From sequence record MN850601.1: 64,000 nucleotides of DNA. One strand, 5' to 3'. This document shows, piece after piece, positions 4,073-42,698 of the stretch; within the stretch, counting starts at the first letter, position 1, and each line of letters begins with the position of its first letter. Both the position numbers and the translations under genes were made by a program. The DNA comes from Escherichia phage inny. A model generated the notes under the pieces. That model saw nothing but the letters and a program-made list of their open reading frames with translations. It was not told where the DNA came from and did not search any database.

Positions 4073-4106
4073 AAAGCCCCTAGAATCGCTTCTAGGGGCT
4101 TTTGTT
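4073..4106 (+). terminator. rho-independent terminator closing the + strand early block
   Basis: perfect hairpin GCCCCTAGAA-TCGC-TTCTAGGGGC followed by TTTTGTTTG. Confidence 0.7.
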
Positions 4107-4169: not shown

Positions 4170-4427
4170 TTAAGAATGCATAAAATCTTCTTCAGGGCAG
4201 GTTGAGAGATAAGAGATGCACGTTGGGACAACAACAACATTATCTTTAAGGTTTGCAACCAAGCCTTTTGTGATTCCAGCCACTGCCCCGTTAATATCTG
4301 CTTGACGGATACCAAAACCTTGTTGTGCGGATAGATAACAAAATCCCTCACCTTTCTGTTGATTATTATTGAAGTAATAAACGTAGTGCATCATAAAATG
4401 GTCTTTAACGATTTGTTCTGTGGTCAT
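4170..4427 (-). CDS. hypothetical protein (85 aa)
   Basis: ORF track; AGGAGA RBS upstream on - strand. Confidence 0.45.
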   Translation of the reverse strand: MTTEQIVKDHFMMHYVYYFNNNQQKGEGFCYLSAQQGFGIRQADINGAVAGITKGLVANLKDNVVVVPTCISYLSTCPEEDFMHS

Positions 4428-4435
4428 AATATTCT

Positions 4436-4461
4436 CCTATAAGAAAAGGGGCTTTCGCCCC
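4436..4461 (-). terminator. rho-independent terminator (hairpin AGGGGCTTTCGCCCCT, copy 1 of 3)
   Basis: GC hairpin followed on - strand by TTTTCTTAT; identical hairpin recurs near 15733 and 28821. Confidence 0.6.
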
Positions 4462-4470
4462 TTGGTCAAG

Positions 4471-5283
4471 TTACTTAGTCAAATGATCTTCTATCATTTT
4501 TATGAAAGCAGGATTGCTAAAAGCATCTGCTGCCTTTTCTCTGTAAACAAAGACTCCTCTATCTTCGTAAAGAAGAGTTTCTTCGTAATTAATTCCTGGG
4601 TTAACAACAATCATTTTTGTACCCATATTAAGTGCAGGGAATAATTCCCAATTAAAATTGATAACTTGGTTTGAACATCCTACTACAACAACCAAATCTT
4701 GCATGGTCAAAGTATCAAACAAGTGAGCCATATCTGCATACAAAGGTGCAGCCTCACCAAAAAATACAACATTAGGCTTCACCCAGTTATAATCATCTAT
4801 GTTTATACTATTGTAACCAATATCTACCAGTGTTTTGTAATCTCCAGGATGCATACGGTAAACTACTTCAGGAAGATACCCGTGCACGTGAATAACAGAA
4901 TCCCTGTCCACACCTGCTCGCTCTAGTAGATCATCAACGTTTGTTGTCAAGTTTACTACTTGGTTAGGATATTCCTTAAACCACTTTGCTATTTGAATAT
5001 GTGCAGCATTAGGTTGTACATCTTTAAGCTCAACACGTCTTTTGTTATAAAATTCGTGTGTTTTGGCATACAAGTCCATACCGTTCTCGTCTACACCACC
5101 GACCACTGGAAGATCTGGAGATGTTCTCACACGATAACCTGCTTGGAAAGCTCCAATATCGCAGACCTCTTCTAAGTCATATTCTTCCCATAAGGCACGA
5201 CCACTATCTGTGTCTGTTCGGAACGTTCGAATCCCACTGTCTGCACTTAAACCTGCGCCACTAACAAAAATTACTCTTCGCAT
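4471..5283 (-). CDS. Sir2-family NAD-dependent protein (deacylase/ADP-ribosyltransferase-like)
   Basis: GAGLSADSGIRTFR (Sir2 GAGxS...GIPxFR), TTNVDDLLERAG (TQNxD), HVHG catalytic His, VVFFGE; only two Cys so no zinc ribbon. Confidence 0.75.
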   Translation of the reverse strand: MRRVIFVSGAGLSADSGIRTFRTDTDSGRALWEEYDLEEVCDIGAFQAGYRVRTSPDLPVVGGVDENGMDLYAKTHEFYNKRRVELKDVQPNAAHIQIAKWFKEYPNQVVNLTTNVDDLLERAGVDRDSVIHVHGYLPEVVYRMHPGDYKTLVDIGYNSINIDDYNWVKPNVVFFGEAAPLYADMAHLFDTLTMQDLVVVVGCSNQVINFNWELFPALNMGTKMIVVNPGINYEETLLYEDRGVFVYREKAADAFSNPAFIKMIEDHLTK

Positions 5284-5294
5284 TCAATATCCTC

Positions 5295-5825
5295 TTAGTA
5301 ATCATCATCCCAAGAAGATGCGTCGTAACGCTCTTCCTCTTCGAAATCCCAATTAATTTCTACTCCAAAATCTAAAAACAATTTAACAATGTTTTCTGTA
5401 GAGTAGTATTTATCATAAGCATTAGCTAGTTCCCAATACTTGTCACTCAATTTTTTATATTTAGGATCATTATAGTCATAATCTACTTTATAACCATAAT
5501 CATACATCTCTTGTTCAGCTTTAAGCATAGCTTCTGGTGTAAGAAGATTAGGGAACGGACGATTTCTTTCTTTTAACTTAGAAGCAATCCAGTTTGCAAC
5601 ATTCGCCACTTCACCATCTCGATTATCACCTAAACAACTTGCATAATCTCCATCTTCGTAAGTGCCTAAATCCCCACAGACCACATGTACAATACTTGAA
5701 TACGATCCACACGTTTCACAATCTGAAAAAGTGTCTACTGTTGTAATATCAATAGATAAAACTGGTAAAGCCATAGCTTCTTTCACACAAGCCTCCTCAT
5801 ATAATAACATATCATCAAAACCCAT
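5295..5825 (-). CDS. hypothetical acidic protein
   Basis: ORF track 5295-5840 trimmed to ATG (MGFDD) preceded by GGAGG RBS. Confidence 0.5.
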   Translation of the reverse strand: MGFDDMLLYEEACVKEAMALPVLSIDITTVDTFSDCETCGSYSSIVHVVCGDLGTYEDGDYASCLGDNRDGEVANVANWIASKLKERNRPFPNLLTPEAMLKAEQEMYDYGYKVDYDYNDPKYKKLSDKYWELANAYDKYYSTENIVKLFLDFGVEINWDFEEEERYDASSWDDDY

Positions 5826-5835: not shown

Positions 5836-5860
5836 CACAAATAAAGCCCCTGATTGGGGC
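5836..5860 (-). terminator. rho-independent terminator
   Basis: hairpin GCCCC-TGATT-GGGGC followed on - strand by TTTATTTG. Confidence 0.6.
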
Positions 5861-5879
5861 TTTGGTTAAGTTTTATGGA

Positions 5880-6491
5880 TTATACCAGACTTTTAAGGTA
5901 CTTGTCAAGGGCTTCTTGATCACCTTGACAAACATAGCAACGGAAGTCTTGAGCAGAAGGTTCTTTGTCCTCGTCCCAATCCCAATAAACAGTACCTTTA
6001 TAACGTGAACCTGGGAACTCGAAATATGCCACATGAGTAATATGGTGTGGGCCACCCCAAAATTCTGTAAAAGTAAATTGAGGATACGCTGCTTTAACTG
6101 TATTCTCAAACCAAGTTTTACGATCTAATGCTTCGTTTATAAAATAAGCATGGCGTTCCATTTCATCCCAATCTTTCCAAACGCATTTTTCATCCAGAGA
6201 AAAAACAAAATCTTCACTGTTAAAATCGTCTGTATCTGATTCCAAAATATCATAATCATGTGCACTAGGTATCCACCATCCAGCTTCTAATAGTGCTTTT
6301 GCAGGTACAAAACCTTTTTCAGCATATTGATCAAATTCTTTTACTCTACGTACAGTGCAGTATTCATCTTCACCACCAATGTCCAGCAGACAAGCACCTT
6401 TGCGTCTTGCTGCAAGACCATGTGTATCAAAAATTACAACACTACCTTCACCATCTTCACGATCTACTTGATATGCAACTTTTTGAGTCAT
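5880..6491 (-). CDS. hypothetical protein (203 aa)
   Basis: ORF track; long ORF with no recognisable motif. Confidence 0.5.
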   Translation of the reverse strand: MTQKVAYQVDREDGEGSVVIFDTHGLAARRKGACLLDIGGEDEYCTVRRVKEFDQYAEKGFVPAKALLEAGWWIPSAHDYDILESDTDDFNSEDFVFSLDEKCVWKDWDEMERHAYFINEALDRKTWFENTVKAAYPQFTFTEFWGGPHHITHVAYFEFPGSRYKGTVYWDWDEDKEPSAQDFRCYVCQGDQEALDKYLKSLV

Positions 6492-6614: not shown

Positions 6615-7604
6615 CTATTCCTCCATACATTTAAGAATATGTGCAATGACAGGTATAGTCCAACCGTTACCTAACATCTTATATGCTTGTGTGTTACTAC
6701 TCACTTTAAAGTAGTCATCTGGCACACCTTGCAAGCGGCAACACTCTTTAACCGTTAACTTTCTATAATGTACGCCTTCACTCAATTTTTCAAAAGCATC
6801 TAGATATCTTCCAGGTGGAATGTAGGCTAATAGTACGTCTTTAGGCACAGTCGTGAGGCAACGAGTTTTTTCACTGTCCTGAACTTCCAAACAATGTACC
6901 AAACGATCAGTTTTAGATGTACTACGTTTGCCATTTTCATTAATTCTACGCCCATATATTGCTGCCGGATAAAAAACCAGTTGTCTGCGACTCTTTTCAA
7001 AATACTGTTCTATATTACCACCTTTGGCATAATTTGCATCTATGCAATAAGCCTTATCTCTGTCTACAATACTATCATCTTCAATGATATCTTGCAACAC
7101 TTCATTGGTAATCTCCCAGGGTTTTATTTCCCAGTTGCACCAGTATAAACGTTGTCTATTCTGTGCCGTGAAATCTGCGGAGTTAATGAATACGGGATCA
7201 ACACCTAAGTAACTTGTGATCACGTTTTCCCACTCCACTTTCATCTTAACGTTTTCAAGCATGAACTTAACATTAGGATTAAACTTTTTAATATGTTCAA
7301 GAATTTCAACATATTCGAAGAATAGTTTAGATCGCGGATCTTGAAAGTTCAAACCCTTACCAGAAGAAGAGAAGCCTTGACACGGACTACCACCTAACAA
7401 AAGATCAATTTCTCCCCACGGGATATCCCATTCTCTCCATTTTGTAACATCACCTAACTGAATAATATCTGGAAAATTTGCTTGGCTTTCAGCTACGGCA
7501 AATTTGTCTAATTCTGAAGCGTAATATGTATCTACTTCAATACCTGCACTTTTTAGCGCAAGCATTCCTCCTGACATACCATCAAAAAGACTTAAAACTT
7601 TCAT
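6615..7604 (-). CDS. DNA (cytosine-5)-methyltransferase
   Basis: C5-MTase motifs: LFDGMSGG (motif I), GGSPCQGFS (PCQ catalytic motif IV), ENV (motif VI). Confidence 0.85.
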   Translation of the reverse strand: MKVLSLFDGMSGGMLALKSAGIEVDTYYASELDKFAVAESQANFPDIIQLGDVTKWREWDIPWGEIDLLLGGSPCQGFSSSGKGLNFQDPRSKLFFEYVEILEHIKKFNPNVKFMLENVKMKVEWENVITSYLGVDPVFINSADFTAQNRQRLYWCNWEIKPWEITNEVLQDIIEDDSIVDRDKAYCIDANYAKGGNIEQYFEKSRRQLVFYPAAIYGRRINENGKRSTSKTDRLVHCLEVQDSEKTRCLTTVPKDVLLAYIPPGRYLDAFEKLSEGVHYRKLTVKECCRLQGVPDDYFKVSSNTQAYKMLGNGWTIPVIAHILKCMEE

Positions 7605-7606
7605 TA

Positions 7607-8017
7607 TTACTTCTTCTCCTTAACACTAGCTGGTAATTCTGCCTTGAGGCAGAAGTTTAAACGGTAAGCCTCATTCTCATTTAAAAGTACAGATTCACAC
7701 GATAACCAGAACAAGAGATCCTCAATACCAGGGCTGTTAAGCCAACAGTGCAGAAGAGAATGTTGTTCTATATCAATGTAATTTAGTAACAAGGCTTGTA
7801 AGGCGTAACTAGTTCCTGTCGTTTTTGCTTTTTCAAGGATGATATTGTGTTTACTAACAACTTTCTTCTTAAGACCAAACCATTTATTAACAACAACAGT
7901 CTCTTCTTGTAGTTGTTTTCTTATTTTCTCACATTCTTTAACTACAATCTGCATCTTATCCACTGCTGATTGAAGTTGTTCTTTTGTTGGGTTTACAAAA
8001 TAATCACTATAATACAT
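7607..8017 (-). CDS. hypothetical protein (136 aa)
   Basis: ORF track; directly downstream of C5-MTase. Confidence 0.45.
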   Translation of the reverse strand: MYYSDYFVNPTKEQLQSAVDKMQIVVKECEKIRKQLQEETVVVNKWFGLKKKVVSKHNIILEKAKTTGTSYALQALLLNYIDIEQHSLLHCWLNSPGIEDLLFWLSCESVLLNENEAYRLNFCLKAELPASVKEKK

Positions 8018-8357: not shown

Positions 8358-8878
8358 ACAACCTCCTCGTAGTTGTTATTGTGTTTTACTGTCTCAACAT
8401 ACAATAAAGATTCCATCTGTAATACATTACCAGAAATAATAAACCCATAAGCCATTTCAGATGTGTCTATATCATATGCCCCGTCTTCCGGTTTAGCAAA
8501 GTGTAAAACTATTTCATCTGGGTTTTCTGCATCCCATAGTTTAGAAATTTTCCGAACCAGAATGTTAGCTAAAATAGTTGACATTCGGGATAAAGCTGTA
8601 TCCTCATATCTTTTAAAACCTAGCCAATAGAGGTTAAGAATTTCTACTTCTTCTTGTGTTAAGTTTTTGTCTAAAGTAATCAGATCTGTAGAGCACGGCG
8701 TTTTTGTTGAACCTACTGTTACAAAACCTGGAGTGTTATGAAAAACAATCTTAACTTTATCACGTATAAAGTTTAAACCTTGTGCCTCAACTATATATTG
8801 TATTGTAGGTACAATATCGTTTGTTACATCAATAAAACTATCTTTAATGACGCTTATATTATTTCTGGACAAGACCAT
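8354..8878 (-). CDS. hypothetical protein (174 aa)
   Basis: ORF track; 4-nt overlap with downstream gene. Confidence 0.45.
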   Translation of the reverse strand: MVLSRNNISVIKDSFIDVTNDIVPTIQYIVEAQGLNFIRDKVKIVFHNTPGFVTVGSTKTPCSTDLITLDKNLTQEEVEILNLYWLGFKRYEDTALSRMSTILANILVRKISKLWDAENPDEIVLHFAKPEDGAYDIDTSEMAYGFIISGNVLQMESLLYVETVKHNNNYEEVV

Positions 8879-9440
8879 TCTCCTCTAAAATAGGCTTAAT
8901 AAATTCGAAAATTTGTTTTTTACTTTTACCTCGAATATTAAAACAAGGAACATTAAACTTTTTAGCCAACATCCAAGCTGTTCTTGTACCACCTAAAGGA
9001 TCTCCATTTTTATCTGTATTTGCACAAGCTAAAAGAAAACAAGATGGTTTTGGATTCTCAAGATCTCTTCCAAGAACTTGGTGGATATTTCTTTGATGTA
9101 ATTTTTTAGCACCTTGAGATAATCTGTCCCAAGCTGGATGCAATTCTTTTGCATATTGCAAGGTTAGAGCATAGTTTACACTATCTGGTCTGTCAAGAAC
9201 AATAACCTCTCCCTCTATTTCATTACCTTTAAACGAGAGCCAAGGGATGTATATTTCTTTCTTTGTATTGTTCCCACTATCATATACCCCGCATTCAAAT
9301 GCGGAATCTGCACCTTCTGCTTTACCAGATCGCAAAATGAACCATGTAGATAACCATTTTGCAACAGATACCATAGTATCCCATTCTTCGTCTGTAATAT
9401 CTCTGCTACCAACACCTGTGTAGAATAAATCGCTCATGGT
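8859..9440 (-). CDS. hypothetical protein with Rossmann-like GVGSR and GGTRT motifs (possible SLOG/DprA-like nucleotide-binding fold)
   Basis: ORF track 8859-9521 trimmed to ATG (MSDLF) after AAGGAGAA RBS; motif resemblance only. Confidence 0.4.
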   Translation of the reverse strand, partial: TMSDLFYTGVGSRDITDEEWDTMVSVAKWLSTWFILRSGKAEGADSAFECGVYDSGNNTKKEIYIPWLSFKGNEIEGEVIVLDRPDSVNYALTLQYAKELHPAWDRLSQGAKKLHQRNIHQVLGRDLENPKPSCFLLACANTDKNGDPLGGTRTAWMLAKKFNVPCFNIRGKSKKQIFEFIKPILEENGLVQK

Positions 9441-9447
9441 TTTCTCC

Positions 9448-9768
9448 TTAACAAGTAATATTGGGAGTAACAATTGGATTAACAATTGGAGTAATAGGGT
9501 ACGTAAACCAAGGGCTTCCAATTTCCCAAGGATAATAAGGTCTACGAGGATCGTATGGAGGAGTTACTTCAGGCTTTTTCCAAATCTCCGCTAATTGTTT
9601 CTTCCATTTATCCCTTGCTGTCTCATTATCTTCATCCAACTGTTCATCATTATCTTTTATTTCTGGTTTTGGAAATAAAAGCTCTTTGACTAATTCAACA
9701 TCTTCCGTCTCAATAGTAGTTTCTTTCGTAAGTTCTCCTACTGTTTCTTTAATTGTGATTTTATACAT
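9448..9768 (-). CDS. hypothetical proline-rich protein (106 aa)
   Basis: ORF track; C-terminal PxxP-rich segment. Confidence 0.4.
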   Translation of the reverse strand: MYKITIKETVGELTKETTIETEDVELVKELLFPKPEIKDNDEQLDEDNETARDKWKKQLAEIWKKPEVTPPYDPRRPYYPWEIGSPWFTYPITPIVNPIVTPNITC

Positions 9769-10514
9769 TAGTCCTCCTCTAAAGTAGAATAAAATTGTAA
9801 CGTATTTGAATCATCAAAATATGCAAAGGTTAAATTACCATTGAAGCAAGATCCTGTGTCCATATATACCCTATTACTGCTAATCACAGGTTTAGGAACA
9901 TAAGAATGCCCGTGAAATACATAATCTACTCCTGAAACCCTAGGAAGAAGAATCCCTTCAAGTGCGCAATCTATCATATCACGATCCCACATTAAAGATT
10001 CTGTGAATTGAGAAACTTGCTCTTTATTCATATTCAAACAAAATGGCAAAACTTCTGTCACTGGTAAATGTTCCAAAACTGAAGGATACCCACCGTGAAT
10101 AAAGCCTAGTTTCATATTACGATAATTGACAACAAGTACAACAGGTAAATCTTCTAGCATCAAAGCAAGAGCAGTTGCACCCTCTTCTCCACACTCGTCT
10201 AGAACTGTATGGCCTCCGTTCTGAAACCAACATTCGTAATATCGTCTATCACCTTCTAGCAACCCTTTAATCATCATATCTTCATGATTTCCACGAATAC
10301 CATAACGATTTAGCTTTCTGGTGAATTCAACAACACAACGAAAATTCTGCTTGCCGCGATCTGTAAGATCTCCTAAAGATACAACAACATCTTGATCTCG
10401 GATACCTAAAGTATTAACACCTTTCTGGTACAAATCAAAGCAACCATGTAAATCACCAATAATAAACAGGTCTTGATCATCTTTTACACTAATTTCTTGA
10501 TATACTAACATCAA
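9768..10514 (-). CDS. Ser/Thr protein phosphatase (calcineurin-like metallophosphoesterase, PPP family)
   Basis: GDLHGCFD, GDLTDRG, GNHEDMM signature motifs (GDxHG / GDxxDRG / GNHE). Confidence 0.75.
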   Translation of the reverse strand: MMLVYQEISVKDDQDLFIIGDLHGCFDLYQKGVNTLGIRDQDVVVSLGDLTDRGKQNFRCVVEFTRKLNRYGIRGNHEDMMIKGLLEGDRRYYECWFQNGGHTVLDECGEEGATALALMLEDLPVVLVVNYRNMKLGFIHGGYPSVLEHLPVTEVLPFCLNMNKEQVSQFTESLMWDRDMIDCALEGILLPRVSGVDYVFHGHSYVPKPVISSNRVYMDTGSCFNGNLTFAYFDDSNTLQFYSTLEED

Positions 10515-16413: not shown

Positions 16414-16680
16414 TTACTCCGCAATCTGAGCCATGAATTCACGTAGTTCAGAAAAACCTCCTACGTGGGTTAGCTGTTCACCATCTTCCACAAAAATCTG
16501 AGGAAATGTGCGTGGTAGAACACCTGTTTTCTCTAAAACCAGATTCTGAATCTGATCTAAAGAATAGTCTTCATCTAAGGTAAGATATTTAAAATCCTGT
16601 TCACGCTGTTCTAGTAGAATCTTAGCGTTAGTGCAGAAAGGACAATTTGGTTTACCGTAGATAATAAAATTCATTTTCAC
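16414..16680 (-). CDS. nrdC: glutaredoxin (NrdC-like, CPFC active site)
   Basis: FIIYGKPNCPFCTNAKILL and GGFSELREF resemble T4 NrdC glutaredoxin. Confidence 0.8.
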   Translation of the reverse strand: MKMNFIIYGKPNCPFCTNAKILLEQREQDFKYLTLDEDYSLDQIQNLVLEKTGVLPRTFPQIFVEDGEQLTHVGGFSELREFMAQIAE

Positions 16681-17507
16681 TCCTTGTTTAAAAGTATAGT
16701 TAAAGTTCTTACAATACCGCTATCAACACTTCGCGGATTTAAAGTAGGATCTGTTTTTAAATAAGATGTTGCTGGTCTGACTGCTTTGGAATTATAGGTT
16801 GAAGCAGATACAGGATTAACTGTAACAGATAAATCTATAACAAGAAATATCTTTCGTGCAAAATCATACCAAGAAATATAATCTGCACCTGCATAGTGTA
16901 CAACTTTACTATTTACACCATCTTTTACAAGTTTAAAAATTGTTTCTGCAAGATCAGGTGCATAAGTAGGACATGACAAATGATCACATACTACATTAAA
17001 TTCTTTTTGACCACCGTTGTAGCGTTCCAACATAGTTTTCAAAAAGTTATGTCCAAATTCACTATAAACAGAAGCTGTTCTGATAATAAGTGCTGTAGGA
17101 CAAACTGTTTGTACTAAAGTTTCACCTAATTGTTTACTGTAACCGTAGGTGTTCAAGGGGTTTGTTTTACTATCTTCTGTGCCAGCAACATGCCCATCAA
17201 AAACATAGTCTGTTGAAATATGTACAAACTGTATCAGTAAATCATTACATGCTTTGGCAATGTTTGTTGCACCGTATGCATTAACATTTATACAGGTGTT
17301 AACATCTTCTTCAGCTTTATCTACTGCCGTGTAAGCCGCACAATTCACAACAACATCAGGCACATGCTGTACAAGACTATTCATAACATCTTTAAAGTTG
17401 GTAATGTCTACATCACTTGCTTCAATCAAAATAACATCTTCGGGCGCAACTTTTGCCAAAGACTGTCCTAATTGACCTTTTGAACCAAAGATTAAAAATT
17501 TTGTCAA
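16677..17507 (-). CDS. rmlD: dTDP-4-dehydrorhamnose reductase
   Basis: N-terminal LIFGSKGQLGQSL Rossmann motif, VDKAE, STDYVFDG as in RmlD/RfbD. Confidence 0.8.
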   Translation of the reverse strand: MTKFLIFGSKGQLGQSLAKVAPEDVILIEASDVDITNFKDVMNSLVQHVPDVVVNCAAYTAVDKAEEDVNTCINVNAYGATNIAKACNDLLIQFVHISTDYVFDGHVAGTEDSKTNPLNTYGYSKQLGETLVQTVCPTALIIRTASVYSEFGHNFLKTMLERYNGGQKEFNVVCDHLSCPTYAPDLAETIFKLVKDGVNSKVVHYAGADYISWYDFARKIFLVIDLSVTVNPVSASTYNSKAVRPATSYLKTDPTLNPRSVDSGIVRTLTILLNKE

Positions 17508-18058
17508 AATATGATCTCCTTTAGTGTTTTGGCTTGCTGATCTTTTTGTGACAAGATAGGTTTAAAATTAATATCATTAAAGATTAAATCAAAACCCCAA
17601 TCAATATTGATATCTGGATCATTCCACGCAAGACTACACTCTGAAGTCGGATCGTAATATTCTGTACATTTATATTCAAAATCAGCAATGTCACTAATCA
17701 CAACAAAGCCATGAGCGAAACCAGGAGGAATCCAAAATTGTGTTTTATTCTTTTCAGATAAGAGAACACCTACCCATTCTCCAAATGTTGGACTACCAAC
17801 CCTAATATCTACAGCAACATCATAAACTTCACCACGAACACAACGTACTAACTTCCCTTGTGGGTTTTTCTTTTGAAAATGAAGCCCACGTAGAACTCCT
17901 CGAATAGAACGTGAATGGTTATCTTGGACAAAGTTTTGTTTACCTATGTATTGATCATATAAAGCCTGATTAAAACTTTCTAAGAAAAAACCACGTTCAT
18001 CTCCGTAAACGTCAGGTTGAATGATCAACAAATCTTCGATTTTTGTTGCTTGAATCAT
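17504..18058 (-). CDS. rmlC: dTDP-4-dehydrorhamnose 3,5-epimerase
   Basis: GDERGFFLESF signature of RmlC cupin epimerases. Confidence 0.85.
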   Translation of the reverse strand: MIQATKIEDLLIIQPDVYGDERGFFLESFNQALYDQYIGKQNFVQDNHSRSIRGVLRGLHFQKKNPQGKLVRCVRGEVYDVAVDIRVGSPTFGEWVGVLLSEKNKTQFWIPPGFAHGFVVISDIADFEYKCTEYYDPTSECSLAWNDPDINIDWGFDLIFNDINFKPILSQKDQQAKTLKEIIF

Positions 18059-18070
18059 TTAATTCCCCCT

Positions 18071-18940: not shown

Positions 18941-18948
18941 ACTCCTCC

Positions 18949-32425: not shown

Positions 32426-33148
32426 TTAAGCAATGATTGCTGCGATATTAGGTTTAACAAAGGTAGATGGTTTCATAATTTTACCTTTGTCATCAAAGAA
32501 TACGTATACCTTTTGAACTTCGTTATATACAGCATGTACCCCAGTATAAGAACCTTCTGCACGATCTTTGCTTCGCATCTCGATAGCATCGCACTCTTTT
32601 TCAAGAGCTTCAATAATATCCTTAGTTTCCCAAATAGCCAGGAGTTGCTTCTTGGTAGGATACTTGGACTCATTGCTATTCAACACTTCACGCATAACCT
32701 TCTTCTCGTTATAAACAGAACGCACCAAAGTATCTCGTGCCATACGGGTAAGTGTAAGAGACATTAAGGCAAATTGCAAGTCATTTTCTACCATTTTATC
32801 AAATTCAATGATAACATCGTAAATGTTCTCTGCCAGAACATCTCCTGTTGGCATTTCCAGAGCTTTATCAACACCTTCTTTACCAAAGAACATAAATGCC
32901 AGGTAGGATGCTACCACAAAAATATCTGCTGCTGCATCAAGTAATTCAACGTGATCATTTTCCTGTGCTGCTGCTTGAAACTCTTTAAGTTCTTCTCGTA
33001 CAAAAGAAAGTTGAGCTTCAAACATCTCTTGAGTAAATTCTGGGGTTACTCCACCACGTGCCTTAGCATTCCAAGCAACAATTTGATCGGCAGTTTTGAT
33101 AAAGAAGCTATTGTCCACTTTTACTTGTTTGAAAAAATTCTCGATCAT
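32426..33148 (-). CDS. MazG-like nucleotide pyrophosphohydrolase domain protein (putative)
   Basis: REELKEF...ELLDAAADI resembles MazG/all-alpha NTP-PPase ExxE...ExxD metal-binding helices; weak. Confidence 0.35.
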   Translation of the reverse strand: MIENFFKQVKVDNSFFIKTADQIVAWNAKARGGVTPEFTQEMFEAQLSFVREELKEFQAAAQENDHVELLDAAADIFVVASYLAFMFFGKEGVDKALEMPTGDVLAENIYDVIIEFDKMVENDLQFALMSLTLTRMARDTLVRSVYNEKKVMREVLNSNESKYPTKKQLLAIWETKDIIEALEKECDAIEMRSKDRAEGSYTGVHAVYNEVQKVYVFFDDKGKIMKPSTFVKPNIAAIIA

Positions 33149-33157
33149 TGTTTCTCC

Positions 33158-33337
33158 TTATTTAAAATATTGTTCTAACAAAACACTAATGCGAACTACC
33201 GATTCGCCCATATACGCCCCAGCACAGAGGAAAACAACAAATCTACAAAAATTGCAGTACCATTTGTCCACTGGAAACGAGGCTAACATTATAATTGCAA
33301 TAGCAATTAACATCATAAGAACTGTTACTAATACCAT
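33158..33337 (-). CDS. small membrane protein
   Basis: ORF trimmed to ATG after AAGAGG RBS; hydrophobic MVLVTVLMMLIAIAIIMLA. Confidence 0.4.
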   Translation of the reverse strand: MVLVTVLMMLIAIAIIMLASFPVDKWYCNFCRFVVFLCAGAYMGESVVRISVLLEQYFK

Positions 33338-33345
33338 ATTACCTC

Positions 33346-34461
33346 TTACTCTGCTGGTTCCCAAGTACCTGGAATCATCTTACGTACACGTACCCCAACA
33401 GGCTTGGTAGGAATACCTTCGTCTGAAAATTCTTCGTACTCTATTTCAACAAATTGACCAATAAGTGTCAAAGCATTTTCTTCTTTACGATAGTTAATGG
33501 TTTCATCTGAATCCTTACGCATCAGGAATTCGACTACTTTACCATTTTCCATCTCTCCTGTCAATACCCCGTCACCATTTTTATCACGCTTTGCACTTAC
33601 CACTTTAACTTCAAGCGTCTGCCGTGGTTTACGTTTAATAACATCATAAGAACGTTTATCGAATTCGTAAACACCTTTTGCGTTACGATACACCACACCT
33701 TCCGCTTTCTCACGTAGAGCTTTTGCATAGAAAGCATCAAACTGTTCTTGGTTTTCAATGTACTCTGTATGTACTACACAAATAAGTTCATCTAAACCTT
33801 TATCTTCAACAACTTCTTTTAGAGCAGCCAAAACTTGAACCCTCTTCTCAAATGGTACAGATGCCACAGGAACATCATATACATAGTATTTAAGAAGTGG
33901 TGTGTTAGCATTATGCTTTTTCCACGCACTATTAATTTGTTGAAGGCTAAGGACACCCAAACCAGCAAAAACTTCACCGTCAAGAGGATGACCAACTACT
34001 TCTTTAATGAAGGTTGGAATTTCTTCCCAGTGAGGTGGAAGTTTATATACCTCCCCAGCTTTAGATAAACATTCACCTTGCATGTTAATCATTGAACGTA
34101 GACCATTCAATTTATATTGTGCATAACCAGGGAACAAAACACGATCAGCATAATCTTTATAATCCTGACATTTCATGGGTGTGGAAGGAACATGGTTTTC
34201 AGCTTCCTCTTTTGTTTTATAGTACCCATTCTTAAGTTGCTTTGTCCATTTGGCAAGAGCTTCTATTTCAGCTTGTTCTTCTGCTGTTGTTTCATTTGAG
34301 CGACCAATATTTTTAGGTTCTGCCGTATAAGATTTGCTAGTGATCTTTCCACCTAATTGACCATGAGCAACAGTTACAACACTACCTTCGGTATAGACTG
34401 ACCACTGTCTAATTTTACCTGTAGAAGTTTTACCATATAATGTAGGATTAGTTTGTTTCAT
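33346..34461 (-). CDS. ATP-dependent polynucleotide ligase (DNA-ligase-like) with atypical motif I KLNGLR
   Basis: Motif I YKLNGLR (Asn where KxDGxR has Asp), motif III PLDGEVFA, motif IV EGVVYRN, motif V DVIKRKP, C-terminal OB-like; start trimmed to ATG after GGAGG. Confidence 0.65.
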   Translation of the reverse strand: MKQTNPTLYGKTSTGKIRQWSVYTEGSVVTVAHGQLGGKITSKSYTAEPKNIGRSNETTAEEQAEIEALAKWTKQLKNGYYKTKEEAENHVPSTPMKCQDYKDYADRVLFPGYAQYKLNGLRSMINMQGECLSKAGEVYKLPPHWEEIPTFIKEVVGHPLDGEVFAGLGVLSLQQINSAWKKHNANTPLLKYYVYDVPVASVPFEKRVQVLAALKEVVEDKGLDELICVVHTEYIENQEQFDAFYAKALREKAEGVVYRNAKGVYEFDKRSYDVIKRKPRQTLEVKVVSAKRDKNGDGVLTGEMENGKVVEFLMRKDSDETINYRKEENALTLIGQFVEIEYEEFSDEGIPTKPVGVRVRKMIPGTWEPAE

Positions 34462-34651
34462 CTTTAACCTCCAGTTGCGAAAGAACCCATTTAGCCATTT
34501 CAATTTCACCGTGTAGTCTGCCTAGTTCATAGGCATCATCAATATTACCACCAGTGTAATCATCCACCATAAAGTAAGGATCTTCACTACTGTTAGGCGC
34601 GTTTGCAATTCTCGTTAGTTCTTCAATAAATGTCATAGTTAACCTTACCAA
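34448..34651 (-). CDS. hypothetical acidic protein (67 aa)
   Basis: ORF track. Confidence 0.4.
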   Translation of the reverse strand: MVRLTMTFIEELTRIANAPNSSEDPYFMVDDYTGGNIDDAYELGRLHGEIEMAKWVLSQLEVKDETN

Positions 34652-34869
34652 TTATACACAAGAGTTTGAATTTCTTCCATCAAATCTTCAAGATCTGTAT
34701 CAACATATTCAGAAGATGTTGCCATAAAGTATGTAATCATTGTGAACCCTTCCGAAGAAAGGGCATCAAGGATATCATTAAACATATCTTCCATTTCAGT
34801 ATTCTCACCAAATGAAAATAACATTTGTTGATCTTCGCTTACACCTTTAACATAGATAGCTGTGCTCAT
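34645..34869 (-). CDS. hypothetical acidic protein (74 aa)
   Basis: ORF track. Confidence 0.4.
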   Translation of the reverse strand: MSTAIYVKGVSEDQQMLFSFGENTEMEDMFNDILDALSSEGFTMITYFMATSSEYVDTDLEDLMEEIQTLVYNW

Positions 34870-34872
34870 ATA

Positions 34873-35193
34873 TTAATCCTTAAGACGTTCATTTAAATCT
34901 GCAATAACATCATTTAAATCTTCACATTCCAGTGTTAACTCTGAAACTTGTTCATTCAAACAAGAAACTTCTTCATTTAGATCTGAAATAATGTTTTCTA
35001 ATGAATCTACTTGATCATCATATGAACGTTTTGTTTCTTCAAGGTCTTCCATAAGACTATCAATCAAATGCAGCAAAGATAAGATATAGCCGTCTCCTGT
35101 TTCGTTCCTCCACTCACTTCCGTAGCGATAAATAATAATTTCACCATCATCGACTACTGTAAAATACTTACCTTTACCAGAATAAATTTCCAT
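34873..35193 (-). CDS. hypothetical coiled-coil protein (106 aa)
   Basis: ORF track; heptad-like LxxLxxE repeats in C-terminal half. Confidence 0.45.
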   Translation of the reverse strand: MEIYSGKGKYFTVVDDGEIIIYRYGSEWRNETGDGYILSLLHLIDSLMEDLEETKRSYDDQVDSLENIISDLNEEVSCLNEQVSELTLECEDLNDVIADLNERLKD

Positions 35194-35202
35194 AAACTCT
35201 CC

Positions 35203-35607
35203 TTATTGTAGCTTAAGTGAACTGCGAAGACGTTCCTCTTGCTGATCACGAATATGTTGTGGAACCTCATGAATTGAATCGTTACCGTGCCTATTCTCCA
35301 CAACTAAAGAAATAACTTGATAACCAAACTCTTCAGCAAGAGTTAAATAAGGTTTAAGTTCTTTTTCTGTAGTAGAGGTATTAGAAACAATAATCTTTTC
35401 AACACCATACTGCATATATTTTTGTACTTTGACACGACACCATTGGTGTGCTTTATGGATATTCTCTTGTTTCCACTCATACACACCATCTTCAGTGTAG
35501 TGGTATTGATCTGCCTCACAAATAGGCCAATGATTTTCAGAGATAATTTCTGCTACTGTAGATTTACCTGCACCTGAAACACCACGTAAAATGATAAGTT
35601 GTTTCAT
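35203..35607 (-). CDS. P-loop polynucleotide kinase-like protein (Pnk kinase domain-like)
   Basis: MKQLIILRGVSGAGKSTVAEII resembles T4 Pnk N-terminal kinase P-loop; immediately follows ligase gene. Confidence 0.6.
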   Translation of the reverse strand: MKQLIILRGVSGAGKSTVAEIISENHWPICEADQYHYTEDGVYEWKQENIHKAHQWCRVKVQKYMQYGVEKIIVSNTSTTEKELKPYLTLAEEFGYQVISLVVENRHGNDSIHEVPQHIRDQQEERLRSSLKLQ

Positions 35608-36540
35608 TTAGCCTCCAAAGAAGTTTTCTATTTCTTTACGTCGCTCTTGTGGATCGAGAGCAGCCCATTGAGCCTTCGTAAATTTATTTCGAAGCCATTC
35701 TAGCAAAGTATAATATTCTTCGTCAACAATTTGTTTAGCATTGTTTGGGTTGTCCCAAATCATATCCCACTTCTTATTGCCACCACGCATAAGGAATTTC
35801 TTAGCAAGATAGTATGGTGACTTAATCTTTAAGAGTAAGTTAAACGGATAGTTTGTTTCACGAACAACAAAGCCTTCGTGTCTACAATGTTTAGACATTT
35901 CAACAACATCTGAAAATTTAATCATTGGATAAACTTCAGGACGTTTAAATTTTGTAATAGATGCAATCCCATCAAGAACACCTTCAGGTAACATGAAACT
36001 TGTCCCATCAAGATTTTGAATTCTTGCTCCAATTAAGTATGCGCCTGGTTCTTCTTCGACAATATGTGGATCAGAAGGATCACAGATTTCAAAAAGGAAA
36101 GTTGCTTTTGCACTTTCTGTCCACTTAATGAAATACTCTATGTCATCACACTCGGAAACAATACGGTTCTTGGCAATAGTTGCAAAGTCTGACTCTAGGC
36201 TCCCTGTTGTTGATACAACAAGTTGCCCTTTGTACACACCTACAGATGCCATAAAACCGTTTACTTTACGGACAGCATCTACAAATTCATCTCCTGGAAG
36301 ATCTGTACCATTCTCAAAACGATTAAAGATTTTAGTAAAAGGCCAAATAACAATATTATCTTCTGAATCAACAACCAACCCACGACAATCTAAAAGTCGT
36401 TTGTCAACGTTCCACAAGTTATCCCAGAATACATTGTTTTTGTATTTAAGTACAGCAAGACCAGCATACTCTCCAGATTTAACTTCTTTTTTATGCACTA
36501 AACCTTTTGCAATCAGGTCATCACAATTGAACTTAGCCAC
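35608..36540 (-). CDS. RNA ligase-like nucleotidyltransferase (Rnl family, motif I KVNG)
   Basis: VRKVNGFMASV (KxNG motif I), EGFVVRE (motif IV), LLLKIK (motif V); flanked by kinase and phosphoesterase. Confidence 0.55.
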   Translation of the reverse strand: MAKFNCDDLIAKGLVHKKEVKSGEYAGLAVLKYKNNVFWDNLWNVDKRLLDCRGLVVDSEDNIVIWPFTKIFNRFENGTDLPGDEFVDAVRKVNGFMASVGVYKGQLVVSTTGSLESDFATIAKNRIVSECDDIEYFIKWTESAKATFLFEICDPSDPHIVEEEPGAYLIGARIQNLDGTSFMLPEGVLDGIASITKFKRPEVYPMIKFSDVVEMSKHCRHEGFVVRETNYPFNLLLKIKSPYYLAKKFLMRGGNKKWDMIWDNPNNAKQIVDEEYYTLLEWLRNKFTKAQWAALDPQERRKEIENFFGG

Positions 36541-36541
36541 C

Positions 36542-37093
36542 TTAATCTCCTTTGATTATCTTATGATGATCTACAACAATAATATCACGCTTATCCATAA
36601 TAGAGATGATTTCGTCAAAATGTAAGATTTTCCCGTGTGCATCCCAACCAACATCCAACATTTTCCCATACAAATGATCAGGGAATGATCCGTGAGAGTG
36701 TCCGTGTAGCATGATTGATCCATGCCCTTGTTTATTCCAGGCAGCCATAGGGTAATGACTTAAGACGAAGAACAGCTTCTGATATTTCACTTCGTCATAA
36801 TACACAACTTCTCCATACTCTGCAAGCACTTTTCTGTGTTTACTGTAATCATGGTTCCCAACACAGTAAGTAATATCCCCTTGGAGACGGGAAGCAATCT
36901 TACGGGTATCTTCTTCAGTCCCGAAACAGAAGTCCCCAAGATGGTACATCTTTACTCCTGGTGTTGTGGCACATTTATTCCATGCTTCGATCAGTGCTTC
37001 TGTCATATGCTCCATATCTTCCCACGGGCGATATTCAGGAGCAAACTCTCGGATACGTTTGTGCATAAAATGCAAATCACTTGTAATAAACAT
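36542..37093 (-). CDS. calcineurin-like metallophosphoesterase
   Basis: SDLHF, GDFCFG, GNHDY, HGHSHG metal-binding motifs. Confidence 0.75.
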   Translation of the reverse strand: MFITSDLHFMHKRIREFAPEYRPWEDMEHMTEALIEAWNKCATTPGVKMYHLGDFCFGTEEDTRKIASRLQGDITYCVGNHDYSKHRKVLAEYGEVVYYDEVKYQKLFFVLSHYPMAAWNKQGHGSIMLHGHSHGSFPDHLYGKMLDVGWDAHGKILHFDEIISIMDKRDIIVVDHHKIIKGD

Positions 37094-37452
37094 TAGTATA
37101 ATCCCTCGCTGAATAGTTCACTGTTGTGACCATTTCTTTCGTAGTTAATTTGTTTGGCGTTATCTGCAATGATATAAGCATCTTTGCGACTCCACCAGTT
37201 ATAATACTGATCAATAAACCCTTGATTATCAGGTAAGCAAAACAGTTTATCAATCAATCCTGCATCTTTTAAAACATTAAGTTGTGCAGATAGTACAGGA
37301 TTTGCATGCCTAACACAAGGAATAATTAACTCTTCGCCATTATTGAGAATATACTTATTCGCAGCGCAGACTATAACACGTTGAGCATAGTGATCCTCAC
37401 CAAGCCAAGTAAGAGGTTGGTAACAAATATCATGTTGATTAGTAGCGCACAT
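37093..37452 (-). CDS. hypothetical protein (about 119 aa)
   Basis: ORF track 37093-37455 (TTG) trimmed to adjacent ATG. Confidence 0.45.
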   Translation of the reverse strand: MCATNQHDICYQPLTWLGEDHYAQRVIVCAANKYILNNGEELIIPCVRHANPVLSAQLNVLKDAGLIDKLFCLPDNQGFIDQYYNWWSRKDAYIIADNAKQINYERNGHNSELFSEGLY

Positions 37453-37601
37453 CAATTTTCTCCATACTCTTTTAATCTATCAGCGAAAAAACTGTAATCA
37501 GGAAGTAAAAGATCATTACTCGTATCGCTACAGTTTTCTTCCTCTTTATAGATAAAATGCCCTTCATCCTCTTCTTGCTCTGACCAAACTGAGTAATGCA
37601 T
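37452..37601 (-). CDS. small acidic protein (49 aa)
   Basis: Hand-translated; TGATG stop/start overlap with downstream gene suggests coupling; below ORF-track cutoff. Confidence 0.35.
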   Translation of the reverse strand: MHYSVWSEQEEDEGHFIYKEEENCSDTSNDLLLPDYSFFADRLKEYGEN

Positions 37602-37610
37602 AATACCTAC

Positions 37611-37985
37611 TTAATAGTTAACACGTTTAATTTCAACACCATAGGATGAAATAAAATTTTCCTTAGCTAACATATATTTACCAGCAGCAGAAGGATTTGA
37701 TGTATGAACATAGATAGTTTTAAGAGCATCCCATTCACCAGCGTACAACATACATTCTACATCTAAGAACGCATGATAGCCTTCTTGATCTTCTCCAAGA
37801 TCATTATCGAAGTGTATTTCTGAGATATTATTGAAATTATCTTCATCTGAAACAAAAGATGACCAATCCCCAAAAGATTTTAACCAAATGGCATCCTCAT
37901 AACCATAATCTTTAGGATCTCTTAAATCGTCTAACCAAATAATTTTAGCCACTATCAACCCCCTTCCTGTTTCTCTTCTTTCCAA
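37611..37985 (-). CDS. hypothetical protein (124 aa)
   Basis: ORF track. Confidence 0.45.
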   Translation of the reverse strand: MERRETGRGLIVAKIIWLDDLRDPKDYGYEDAIWLKSFGDWSSFVSDEDNFNNISEIHFDNDLGEDQEGYHAFLDVECMLYAGEWDALKTIYVHTSNPSAAGKYMLAKENFISSYGVEIKRVNY

Positions 37986-39999: not shown

Positions 40000-40893
40000 A
40001 TGAAAGTTAGTATTCTACATGGTGTTGACTGTTATGTTACTGATGTAGACGTTAAAGTCTTTACATTCTCTGGTGGAGAACAACATGTTCAACTAGACAC
40101 GAATCTATCAGGTTTCAATCATGCTACAGACAGAATCTTACTCTCTTTAGAAGTAAGATCTGCTAAAGACTTGATGACTTTGGTTATGACTAAGAATGCA
40201 TTGGACAATATGCTATATCATAAACCATATTGTGTTGATTTACTCATGTTGTATGTGCCGTATGCACGACAAGACAGAGTGTGTGAGCCTGGGGAAGCAT
40301 TCGGAGTTAAAGCCTTTGCTTCTATAATTAATTCATTAAATTTCTCACGTGTTATCGTTGCTGATCCACATAGTGATGTTACTCCGGCAGTGTTTGACAG
40401 ACTCTGTGTAATACCTCAAGAAGAGATTGCTTACGAAACTTTAAAGTGGAAGTTACGTATGGAGAATTTTGCTCTTGTTAGTCCTGATGGTGGTGCTCTT
40501 AAGAAAATATTTAAATTATCTAAGAAAATGTCTTTAGATGTGTTCTGTGCAGAGAAGGTTAGAGATACTGCAACAGGTGCTATTGTTCGTACAGACATTT
40601 CTGTACAGGATTTCAATAAGCGTAACCTGATGATCGTAGATGATATCTGTGACGGCGGTAGAACTTTTATTGAATTGGCTAAAGTGCTACGTGCTCGTAA
40701 CGCAGGTAAGATTGAGTTATATGTTACACACGGTATCTTTTCTAAAGGTCTTAAAGAGTTAAGTGAGCACTTTGACTGCATTCATTCTCTTAATGTGTGG
40801 GAAGATAACATCCAAGAAGATTCCGGTGTTCTTGTTAAGAATCAGTCAGATTTGCAACAACAAATTGTATCTCCATACGTGTGGAATTTTTAA
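40000..40893 (+). CDS. ribose-phosphate pyrophosphokinase family protein (Prs-like; candidate ADP-ribose pyrophosphokinase of an NAD+ reconstitution pair)
   Basis: PRPP-synthetase-like motifs VADPHSD and MIVDDICDGGRTF; 297 aa; AGGAGA RBS. Confidence 0.8.
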   Translation: MKVSILHGVDCYVTDVDVKVFTFSGGEQHVQLDTNLSGFNHATDRILLSLEVRSAKDLMTLVMTKNALDNMLYHKPYCVDLLMLYVPYARQDRVCEPGEAFGVKAFASIINSLNFSRVIVADPHSDVTPAVFDRLCVIPQEEIAYETLKWKLRMENFALVSPDGGALKKIFKLSKKMSLDVFCAEKVRDTATGAIVRTDISVQDFNKRNLMIVDDICDGGRTFIELAKVLRARNAGKIELYVTHGIFSKGLKELSEHFDCIHSLNVWEDNIQEDSGVLVKNQSDLQQQIVSPYVWNF

Positions 40894-40903
40894 ATAATAA
40901 GTG

Positions 40904-40932
40904 TTGACAATAGGGAGTATGCTTAGTAAGAT
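40904..40932 (+). promoter_or_regulatory. sigma70-like promoter (GTGTTGACA-N17-TAAGAT)
   Basis: Consensus -35 with -10-like TAAGAT upstream of 40965. Confidence 0.5.
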
Positions 40933-40964: not shown

Positions 40965-42698
40965 ATGAATATTTTTGCACCTTTTGCTACTGATTGGTAT
41001 AAACCTGGTCACAAGCAGATGTACAACCAAAATACAAAACTCATTTTCTCTAATTTAACTCCTCGTAATGATAAAAACTTTGCACACTATGCAGATCGTG
41101 AAGCACGTGGTGTAATTGTTTTAGGTATTCGTCGAGCAGTTACTGATGCTCTTGTAACTATGTGGGATAGCTTCTTTAAAATGTCTCGTAGTGCAGCAGT
41201 AAATAAATTTTATCGTATGTCTAAAAATGCATTAGGTGCTTCTGCTCCTTCTGCTGAATGTTGGGGAGAATTGCACGATTTAGGTTATCTTCCGCTGGAA
41301 GTTCGATCTCTGCCAGAAGGTGTTTTGTGTCCTATTGGTGTTCCTGTGTTTACTGTGCATAATACTTTAGAAAAATTCTTTTGGTTAACTAACTATGTGG
41401 AAACACTATTGTCAGATGAAACTTGGAAGACAATGACTAATGCTACAGCAGCTTTTCAGTATAAGCGTATTGCTATGGCATATGCGATGGCAACGTGTGA
41501 TAATATTGATCATGTTAACTTCCAGTGTCATGATTTTAGCCTACGTGGTTTAAGTAATATCGAAGATGGTTATAAGAGTGGTATCGCTCATTTGGCATCT
41601 TTCACAGGAACAGATAACATTCTGGCTATTGAGACTGTGCATGATTATTATGGTATTGATTATGATCAGTTTGTTGCAGGTTCTATTCCGGCAACAGAAC
41701 ATTCAGTAGCAACGACTAACATTGGAGCTATTGTTGAAGATCTGAAGAAACATTTCCCACATCTTAAAGATGATGTTGATGGGCTTCGTTATGTAGCAGA
41801 GAAAGAGTTTCTTCGCCGCTATATTGAAGAAATTGTTCCAGAAGGTTTTTGTTCATATGTAGCAGATTCTTATGACTACTGGGCTGTCTTGACTCGCATT
41901 CTGGTCGAGTTGAAAGATTCCATTATGTCACGAAATGGTCGTCTTGTTATTCGTCCAGATTCAGGAGATCCGGTTAAAGTTGTTGCAGGATACAATGTTG
42001 AATCTTTTGATAACTATGAAGACCTTTTAAATAATGGTATTGCTACAGCCACTGAAGTAGTTCATTTGGCTGATGTTAATAAGTATTACAATGTTCTTCA
42101 GGATTGCAGTGTTGCTGATTGTATTGATGAAACTTATGAGATTCCTTATTGTGAAGCAGTAGGTTCTATTCAAATCCTTTGGGAAGTGTTTGGTGGTACT
42201 ATCAACCGAAAAGGCTACAAGGTTCTTGATCAGCACATCGGTATGATTTATGGTGATTCTATTACTGTTGAACGAGAACACGAAATCTTACGCCGACTGA
42301 AGAAGAAAGGTTTTGCAGCTTCCAATATTGTATTTGGTGTTGGTAGTTATACTTATCAGTTCAATACACGAGATACTTTTGGTTTTGCTGTTAAAGCAAC
42401 AGGTAGTATCATCGGTGAACACGAAATTTTGGTAAGTAAGGAGCCTAAAACTGATCCTGGTAAACGTTCTGCAAAAGGTTTTATTAAGGTTGTTAAGGAT
42501 ACAAACGGTAAACTTTCTCTCGTGGATAATCTTTCTTTTAAAGATATTCAAGATGAAGACAATGAGTTAAAAGTTATCTTCAGGGATGGTACGGTTATTA
42601 CACCACAAGTAGAAGGACGTGATGAAACATTTACGGATATCCGCAATCGTGTTGATGTAGAGGTTCTTCGTACTATGGGAACCATCCAGGTTGACTAA
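40965..42698 (+). CDS. nicotinamide phosphoribosyltransferase family protein (NadV/NAMPT-like; candidate nicotinamide ADP-ribose transferase)
   Basis: N-terminal FATDWYKPGHK (NAMPT DxYKxxH), 577 aa, family-typical size. Confidence 0.8.
   Translation: MNIFAPFATDWYKPGHKQMYNQNTKLIFSNLTPRNDKNFAHYADREARGVIVLGIRRAVTDALVTMWDSFFKMSRSAAVNKFYRMSKNALGASAPSAECWGELHDLGYLPLEVRSLPEGVLCPIGVPVFTVHNTLEKFFWLTNYVETLLSDETWKTMTNATAAFQYKRIAMAYAMATCDNIDHVNFQCHDFSLRGLSNIEDGYKSGIAHLASFTGTDNILAIETVHDYYGIDYDQFVAGSIPATEHSVATTNIGAIVEDLKKHFPHLKDDVDGLRYVAEKEFLRRYIEEIVPEGFCSYVADSYDYWAVLTRILVELKDSIMSRNGRLVIRPDSGDPVKVVAGYNVESFDNYEDLLNNGIATATEVVHLADVNKYYNVLQDCSVADCIDETYEIPYCEAVGSIQILWEVFGGTINRKGYKVLDQHIGMIYGDSITVEREHEILRRLKKKGFAASNIVFGVGSYTYQFNTRDTFGFAVKATGSIIGEHEILVSKEPKTDPGKRSAKGFIKVVKDTNGKLSLVDNLSFKDIQDEDNELKVIFRDGTVITPQVEGRDETFTDIRNRVDVEVLRTMGTIQVD

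Follow-up and report, generated by a model that had tools for sequence, protein, structure and literature searches.

The 64,000-nucleotide (nt) stretch of Escherichia phage inny analyzed here (sequence record MN850601.1, referred to below as the window) carries a gene for a Sir2-family protein, or sirtuin, that has lost the zinc ligands of its family and is interpreted, with moderate confidence, as a zinc-independent CobB/SIRT5-like (class III) lysine deacylase acting on host or phage proteins. Sequence and structural model show its family, predicted fold, conserved catalytic residues, loss of zinc ligands, and consensus-type operon signals.

The gene is read on the minus strand from an ATG at 5283 to a stop codon included at 4471 and encodes 270 amino acids (aa), while the plus-strand open reading frames (ORFs) at 4420-4644, 4699-4926, 4960-5175, and 5058-5264 are antisense shadows of it. 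An earlier reading made by a model from the letters alone (the original prediction) had named this ORF, its Sir2 motifs, and its two cysteines, and all of these were borne out: the ORF is real and lies on the minus strand, the motifs are present (GAGLSADSGIRTFR at residues 9-22, TTNVDD at 113-118, and HVHG at 132-135), and C41 and C203 are the only cysteines, no CxxC being present. Its profile and structure matches are far beyond chance. It matches Pfam SIR2 (PF02146; E 1.3e-22, 81 bits against a gathering cutoff of 24) and PHROG 2162, "Sir2 (NAD-dependent deacetylase)" (NAD, nicotinamide adenine dinucleotide), with an E-value of 1.3e-105 and residues 1-269 placed on profile positions 10-270 of 277. 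The phage Sir2 proteins of PHROG 2162 and VOG1363 include T5.102 and those of the rV5-like, Mydo, 7-11, and phi92/phAPEC8 phages; identity of the window protein to those of the other lineages is 47-76%, and all of them are without the zinc ligands. The solved relatives closest by sequence are CobB, Sir2-Af2, Sir2Tm, and SIRT5, the best being E. coli CobB (1s5p; E 1.5e-18). Among NCBIfam models, those matched best all describe NAD-dependent protein deacylases or CobB, none reaches its curated cutoff, and the equivalog test failed (best NF001753, 106.5 bits against a cutoff of 243), so that the phage Sir2 is to be seen as a divergent relative and not as an orthologue of cellular CobB.

Neither the gene nor its family is new, a point that the original prediction overlooked together with the RNA-repair role predicted for the clade (Iyer et al., 2022; PMC9503650): the gene is annotated in GenBank, the family has its own PHROG 2162 and VOG1363, and the clade was discussed in the same study. 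The window DNA is 99.6% identical to that of Escherichia phage arall (Justusliebigvirus, Stephanstirmvirinae, phi92-like) and is collinear with phage JLBYU50 from the first base of the JLBYU50 record. The Sir2 protein is 100% identical to arall QHR67595.1, annotated as "putative Sir2-like protein", and tblastn recovered relatives in 983 phage records, mostly of enterobacterial phages; the protein, annotated before, thus falls into a phage family that is both large and recognised. Identities in this search were 65-100% in phi92/phAPEC8-like phages, 52-62% in T5-like phages including T5 gene T5.102, 47-58% in Mydo-like and rV5-like phages, 51% in Salmonella phage 7-11, about 38% in large vibriophages, and about 30% in jumbo phages. 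Of ten cluster representatives examined for the nearest cellular relatives, almost all are metagenomic sequences, the exception being from a Neptunomonas metagenome-assembled genome. In RefSeq NC_005859, the name "Sir2 (NAD-dependent deacetylase)" is misapplied to T5.105 (7142-7648 of locus L003), which matches Pfam HAD_SAK_2 (E 4e-20); the sirtuin of T5 is in fact T5.102, which lies two genes upstream.

The catalytic core was compared in an alignment of 65 close homologues (A1) and in 137 distant representatives taken from a search of 1.84 billion proteins. Residues G9, A10, G11, and S13, F21 and R22, N115, D117, H134 and G135, F175 and E177 of the FGE motif at 175-177, G202 and S204, and N228 are invariant or nearly so in both sets, suggesting that the phage Sir2 is probably a working sirtuin. 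Among them are the residues of the NAD+-binding Rossmann motifs (GAGxS, GIxxFR, GxS, and the C-terminal Asn) and of the catalytic N-x-D and H-G. An alternative in which the protein is a non-catalytic binder or decoy, for instance sequestering NAD+-derived signals or mimicking host CobB, could draw on the lost structural zinc and on the altered TQNID (T114) and VxP motifs, yet it is very improbable, since the catalytic and NAD-contacting residues are strictly conserved over hundreds of sequences down to about 35% identity, which argues for an enzyme under selection.

The AlphaFold2 model built on A1 has a two-domain sirtuin fold, with a mean predicted local distance difference test score (pLDDT) of 90.8 and a predicted template modelling score of 0.87. 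Only residues 21-30 are modelled weakly; they form the cofactor-binding loop, whose mobility in sirtuins has been described (PMC8556138). The original prediction had proposed a structural comparison with sirtuins on the one hand and defence-type SIR2 NADases on the other. In a Foldseek search of the PDB with the model, the top 50 matches are all canonical sirtuin deacylases and none is a defence SIR2; CobB 1s5p comes first (E 5.7e-17, template modelling score 0.85 normalised to CobB), followed by Sir2-Af1, SIRT5 with succinyl or glutaryl peptides, Sir2-Af2, Sir2Tm, SIRT2, and Hst2. A BFVD search of predicted viral structures recovered only other phage and giant-virus sirtuins. Alignments and model together support a genuine Sir2 fold with apparently intact NAD+-binding and catalytic residues, as had been proposed, and of the three activities that had been offered (deacylation, ADP-ribosylation, and NADase), sequence and predicted fold favour a CobB/SIRT5-type deacylase.

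The zinc ribbon, which had been called absent, is better described as stripped of its ligands. The canonical four zinc-binding cysteines are gone, and residues 135-169 are without any cysteine; however, the segment itself, from H134-G135 to K169-P170 (HG to KPNVVFFGE), keeps its full length of 33 residues, about the same as in CxxC...CxxC relatives, and has a "DIGY" motif in common with zinc-cysteine relatives (for example P0140, HGELTKMNCHVCDSIYDINYSSFTNESTCPICNGKYSKPNVVFFGE). It was modelled as three beta-strands (135-143, 151-154, and 167-172) with pLDDT 95-96. The retained length and the three confident strands suggest that the ribbon was kept and that the metal ligands alone were lost. 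This loss is real but is not peculiar to the window gene. CxxC was found in none of 120 close homologues and, among 52 related viral loci, only in two jumbo phages (L055 and L056) and as a single CxxC in one T5-like ORF (L019), the 37% identical jumbo-phage sirtuin of L055 having kept the full pair, CEAC...CPCC. At least three cysteines occur in the ribbon segment of 84 of the 137 distant representatives. From this distribution, the loss of zinc ligands is taken to be derived and to characterise the T5/rV5/phi92/7-11 clade among enterobacterial phages. The zinc of sirtuins is regarded as a structural element that matters for small-domain integrity (PMC8556138); the proteins of this clade must substitute packing for it. 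In the 279-kb jumbo phage contig of L055 (10001-11198), the sirtuin is directly followed by a nucleoside 2-deoxyribosyltransferase-like gene (Pfam Nuc_deoxyri_tr2, E 1.2e-33).

The acyl pocket points in the same direction as the fold. Y79, R82, and C41 align with CobB Y92, R95, and A76, which correspond to SIRT5 Y102, R105, and A86, the triad by which class III sirtuins accept acidic acyl groups, succinyl- and malonyl-lysine. All three residues are invariant in the close clade (A1), and 134 of the 137 distant relatives have Cys or Ala at position 41. With CobB (PDB 1s5p and 6rxj) and with human and zebrafish SIRT5, the phage Sir2 shares the two-domain fold and the GAGxS, FR, N-x-D, HG, FGE, and GxS motifs, in addition to the Y-x-x-R pair and the small pocket residue. 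It differs from them in the missing zinc cysteines, in T for Q of TQNID, in V-I-N for VxP, in an insertion of about 22 residues (46-70) within the helical module, which only the closest phage clade has, and in the lack of the basic N-terminal extension of CobB. To our knowledge, all characterised proteins that combine the sirtuin fold, this catalytic set, and a Y-x-x-R pocket are protein lysine deacylases, and the deacylase assignment is based on this.

In the proposed mechanism, the protein would be a class III NAD+-dependent sirtuin of the CobB/SIRT5 type whose small domain folds without zinc. It would take acyl groups off lysines of host or phage proteins, acetyl and possibly acidic ones such as succinyl or malonyl, and each reaction would consume one NAD+ and yield nicotinamide and O-acyl-ADP-ribose. 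Host RNA polymerase would transcribe the two-gene unit of orf176 and sir2 from a consensus sigma-70 promoter, and an early role in conditioning the host or its proteome would suit such transcription. It is the enzymatic activity, acyl preference, targets, and timing that we infer.

Several observations weigh against a CobB-like deacylase. Its identity to CobB is only about 27%. Residue T114 stands in place of Q of TQNID, and V-I-N follows GxS where sirtuins have the V-x-P substrate-staple motif; by these departures, substrate handling may differ from that of CobB. T is found at the former position in 43 of the 137 representatives and tracks zinc loss, with 34 T without zinc and 69 Q with zinc. 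In other lineages, sir2 is found among RNA-end-processing and not protein-modification genes, and literature searches on phage sirtuins returned no biochemical or genetic study of the clade, but only comparative genomics from one group and routine genome announcements. Furthermore, host CobB reportedly lowers the yields of T4 and lambda (PMC4271551), an activity that a phage has no obvious reason to add to; a CobB-like enzyme carried by a phage could be of benefit only with other targets or another timing.

The transcription signals around sir2 (Table 1) are those of a separate unit, and this sets the window's genus apart from the other PHROG 2162 lineages, since its sir2 has left the RNA-ligase/cREC/kinase cluster and stands in its own promoter-to-hairpin unit with orf176. 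The 12/12 match to the sigma-70 consensus is the only perfect one in the window, and relatives with a Sir2 of just 70% identity have an 11/12 version in the corresponding position. These consensus signals suggest transcription by the host polymerase, which would hence probably be early. The hairpin between the predicted promoter and orf176 could stop transcription coming from upstream or, on the new transcript, fold as a 5' stem-loop. The gene orf176, which ends 11 nt before the start of sir2 and is probably co-transcribed with it, encodes a very acidic (isoelectric point 4.07), Tyr-rich protein of 176 aa seen, among the sampled loci, only in phi92/phAPEC8-like phages; this protein may act with the sirtuin or regulate it, or may be an early protein with no connection to it. 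Homologues of orf203 form 23 clusters in 5.8 billion proteins; orf203 has no Pfam match, and its AlphaFold2 model (pLDDT 78.8) gave no Foldseek match in the PDB with E < 0.1. The neighbours orf176, orf203, orf85, and orf136 offered no functional clue, their PHROG matches being to families of unknown function only and their Pfam matches being limited to DUF5050 in orf85, far below threshold (E 0.0048). An Rfam scan of the window found tRNAs only and no RNA element at the sir2 locus. Farther downstream, a 13-bp perfect palindromic hairpin at 4073-4102 with T-runs on both strands, where a rightward block (end 3994) meets a leftward one (end 4170), looks like a bidirectional terminator.

Table 1. 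Features of the sir2 locus and of related gene clusters in the 64-kb window.
Feature	Coordinates	Strand	Remarks
Sir2-family (sirtuin) coding sequence, 270 aa, without zinc ligands	4471..5283	-	Pfam, PHROG, CobB match, alignments, AlphaFold2 model, Foldseek
Key residues: GAGxS 9-13, F21/R22, C41, Y79/R82, N115/D117, catalytic H134, FGE 175-177, G202/S204, N228	Sir2 protein		
Terminator-like hairpin AAGGGGC-GAAA-GCCCCTT with T-rich tail	4446..4463	-	8 nt past Sir2 stop codon
Shine-Dalgarno-like AAGAGGA	5290..5296	-	6 nt upstream of Sir2 ATG; overlaps orf176 stop codon 5295-5297
orf176	5295..5825	-	PHROG 9509; likely ATG 5825 after GGAGGA; start in mechanical ORF list TTG 5840
Hairpin AAAGCCCC-AATCA-GGGGCTTT	5843..5863	-	Between predicted promoter and orf176
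Predicted sigma-70 promoter TTGACA-18-TATAAT with TG extension, 12/12	5879..5908	-	Presumed for orf176-Sir2; within last codons of orf203
orf203	5880..6491	-	PHROG 8514; upstream of Sir2 in phi92-like and L046/L051-type phages
RNA/DNA end-processing cluster, no Sir2 inside	32426..37985	-	Flanks Sir2 in rV5-like and Mydo-like phages
MazG-like	32426-33148	-	End-processing cluster
ATP-dependent DNA ligase	33346-34509	-	End-processing cluster
P-loop kinase, 134 aa, AAA_33	35203-35607	-	End-processing cluster
Rnl1-type RNA ligase, RNA_lig_T4_1	35608-36540	-	End-processing cluster
Metallophosphoesterase	36542-37093	-	End-processing cluster
cREC_REC domain protein	37611-37985	-	End-processing cluster
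Phosphoribosyl pyrophosphate (PRPP) synthetase-like, candidate Adps (Pribosyltran and Pribosyl_synth; PHROG 619)	40000..40893	+	NARP1-type
NAPRTase/NAMPT-family, 577 aa, candidate Namat (NAPRTase E 5.7e-38)	40965..42698	+	Adjoins Adps-like gene
tRNA cluster, 15 genes including tRNA-Lys(UUU), two tRNA-Met, two tRNA-Ser, two tRNA-Leu	43446-46196	+	Just downstream of NARP1-like pair

The main alternative, considered unlikely, is that the sirtuin works in RNA repair, transferring ADP-ribose from NAD+ to the 2'-phosphate of broken or re-ligated RNA, such as tRNA cut by host anticodon nucleases, in the manner of Tpt1/KptA. The cREC, 2H, HAD, metallophosphoesterase, and Nudix proteins would then serve to open the cyclic phosphate or to remove the ADP-ribose cyclic phosphate, and the Y79/R82 pocket would hold phosphate in place of an acidic acyl group. 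More doubtful still is a clade-wide version, in which the zinc-less phage proteins were repurposed from protein deacylation to nucleic-acid chemistry, with Y79/R82 binding the RNA 2'-phosphate and the sirtuin serving as a Tpt1 analogue in tRNA repair. The idea goes back to comparative genomics, in which most viral sirtuins were placed in one distinct clade and a KptA/Tpt1-like role in RNA repair was predicted for it from its neighbours, namely RNA ligase, cREC, kinase, MazG, calcineurin-like, HAD, and 2H genes (Iyer et al., 2022; PMC9503650, section 3.7.3). The likeness to Tpt1/KptA would lie in the use of NAD+ as ADP-ribose donor, an analogy drawn from the neighbours shared in other phages (RNA ligase and domains that process cyclic phosphates), but Tpt1/KptA belongs to the ADP-ribosyltransferase superfamily, whose fold is unrelated to that of sirtuins (PMC9503650).

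The gene neighbourhoods, with linkage counts drawn from a sample of 52 viral loci, lend this idea its weight. In the rV5-like phage Murica, an operon consists of an Rnl1-type RNA ligase, a 116-aa cREC homologue, Sir2, MazG, and a terminator, and a kinase and a phosphoesterase are encoded divergently. The 116-aa protein has a homologue in the window that matches Pfam cREC_REC (E 4e-13). The order in Mydo is phosphoesterase ... RNA ligase ... kinase ... Sir2, DNA ligase, and 13 of the 52 loci combine phosphoesterase, RNA ligase, (cREC), kinase, Sir2, DNA ligase, and MazG. Similarly, T5.102 shares one operon with T5.105, whose HAD_SAK_2 family is the "Swiss Army Knife RNA repair" family of Pfam. 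Neighbourhoods of this kind occur in no fewer than two independent lineages, the rV5/Mydo-like and the T5-like, and, according to Iyer et al. (PMC9503650), in jumbo phages as well. The window genome itself encodes all the partners (cREC_REC, RNA_lig_T4_1, AAA_33 kinase, and metallophosphoesterase) and carries 15 tRNA genes.

The arrangement in the window phage tells against it, since the RNA-ligase cluster is intact there without Sir2, which lies about 30 kb off among orf176, orf203, and orf85; an RNA-end-processing neighbourhood is present at the Murica, Mydo, and T5 loci but not at the window sir2. Moreover, all 13 linked loci belong to a single related group (Vequintavirinae-like) whose cluster contains DNA ligase, 5' exonuclease, and DNA polymerase genes as well, so that conserved synteny of a nucleic-acid-metabolism block could explain the linkage. 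We know of no experimental link between any sirtuin and RNA, nor of any sirtuin shown to act on RNA that could serve as a biochemical precedent. A repair route with kinase, metallophosphoesterase, and Rnl1 has no need of a 2'-phosphotransferase, as in T4 and Pnkp-type repair, and the class III deacylase triad is ancestral and not a novelty of the phage clade.

An improbable alternative is that the protein is an ADP-ribosyltransferase of proteins or nucleic acids, or a NADase, used for host takeover or counter-defence, with a NARP1-type gene pair refilling the NAD+ pool. The original prediction had noted NAD+-regeneration genes in this phage, and these do exist, as adjacent PRPP-synthetase-like and NAPRTase-family genes (Table 1). 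In the NARP1 pathway, NAD+ is reconstituted by adjacent Adps and Namat, PRPS-like and NAMPT-like genes, to counter NAD+-depleting defences (bioRxiv 10.1101/2024.02.11.579819), and the window genes at 40000-42698 have this arrangement, making them a candidate pair by sequence. The Adps-like protein is 34-42% identical to homologues in E. coli, Salmonella, and Shigella phage genomes of about 86-89 kb and in ICP1; the former are probably Felix O1-like, as is the characterised phage Bas63 (PMC12609058). ADP-ribosylation is known for some sirtuins, and the phage protein has kept its catalytic core. The pair lies in the same genome and comes within 2.4-8 kb of Sir2 in nine Vequintavirinae-like loci and one further locus (L057), and it is chemically plausible that NARP1 would recycle the nicotinamide and ADP-ribose made by the sirtuin. 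DprA-like/SLOG or DrHyd-type genes also recur near Sir2 in several lineages.

Set against this, Sir2 and the pair are 35 kb apart in the window phage, and no NARP1-type pair is present in the T5-like Sir2 loci sampled. The two families occur largely in different phages, Sir2 in its mostly enterobacterial records and Adps in 1566, led by Staphylococcus and Pseudomonas phages. Obligate coupling of Sir2 and NARP1 is not supported as a rule by the absence from T5-like loci and the differing distributions, and the "deliberate NAD+-centred strategy" that had been put forward for this phage is likewise unsupported, although the genes are close together in the Vequintavirinae-like loci. An unregulated NADase would also work against a phage that invests in rebuilding NAD+.

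Nor does the protein resemble the specialised enzymes of this kind. A SirTM-type ADP-ribosyltransferase was rejected: in that class, the catalytic His is replaced by Gln and a macrodomain gene is adjacent (PMC8120803), whereas H134 is present and invariant here, and no macrodomain match was found among the neighbouring genes of sir2. A defence-type SIR2 was rejected as well, the fold search having returned canonical sirtuins only among its top 50 matches and the PADLOC defence-system models nothing significant (best PDC-S65, E 0.0066 over 37 residues). The defence SIR2 NADases (ThsA, DSR1/2, SIR2-HerA, and SIR2-pAgo) share the Sir2 Rossmann core and are without a zinc ribbon. Unlike them, the phage Sir2 is single-domain, has no sensor domain or partner gene (SLOG, HerA, pAgo, or the DSR C-terminal domain), and keeps the substrate-groove motifs of deacylases.

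Two other groups of genes in the window were noted. A DprA-like protein at 8859-9521 (PHROG 768, no Pfam match, read as SLOG-type) and a calcineurin-like phosphoesterase at 9768-10514, both on the minus strand, are found together again, at 3-8 kb from Sir2, among the phi92-like loci and at L046/L051, and two T5-like loci have the DprA-like gene alone. Four consecutive minus-strand ORFs at 16677-19938 are collinear with JLBYU50 genes annotated as a dTDP-rhamnose pathway (glucose-1-phosphate thymidylyltransferase, 4,6-dehydratase, 3,5-epimerase, and reductase), a sugar-nucleotide pathway unusual in a phage.

Judged from their sequences, nearly a thousand sequenced phages, the model phage T5 among them, carry a conserved and very probably active sirtuin. 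If the structural model is right, the family shows that the small domain of a sirtuin can fold without the supposedly essential zinc. Should the protein instead prove to act in RNA repair, it would be the first demonstrated case of a sirtuin acting on RNA, and the NAD+ reconstitution genes would back such an enzyme under NAD+-depleting immunity. The choice between deacylation and RNA repair also bears on why phages that defend their NAD+ encode an NAD+ consumer.

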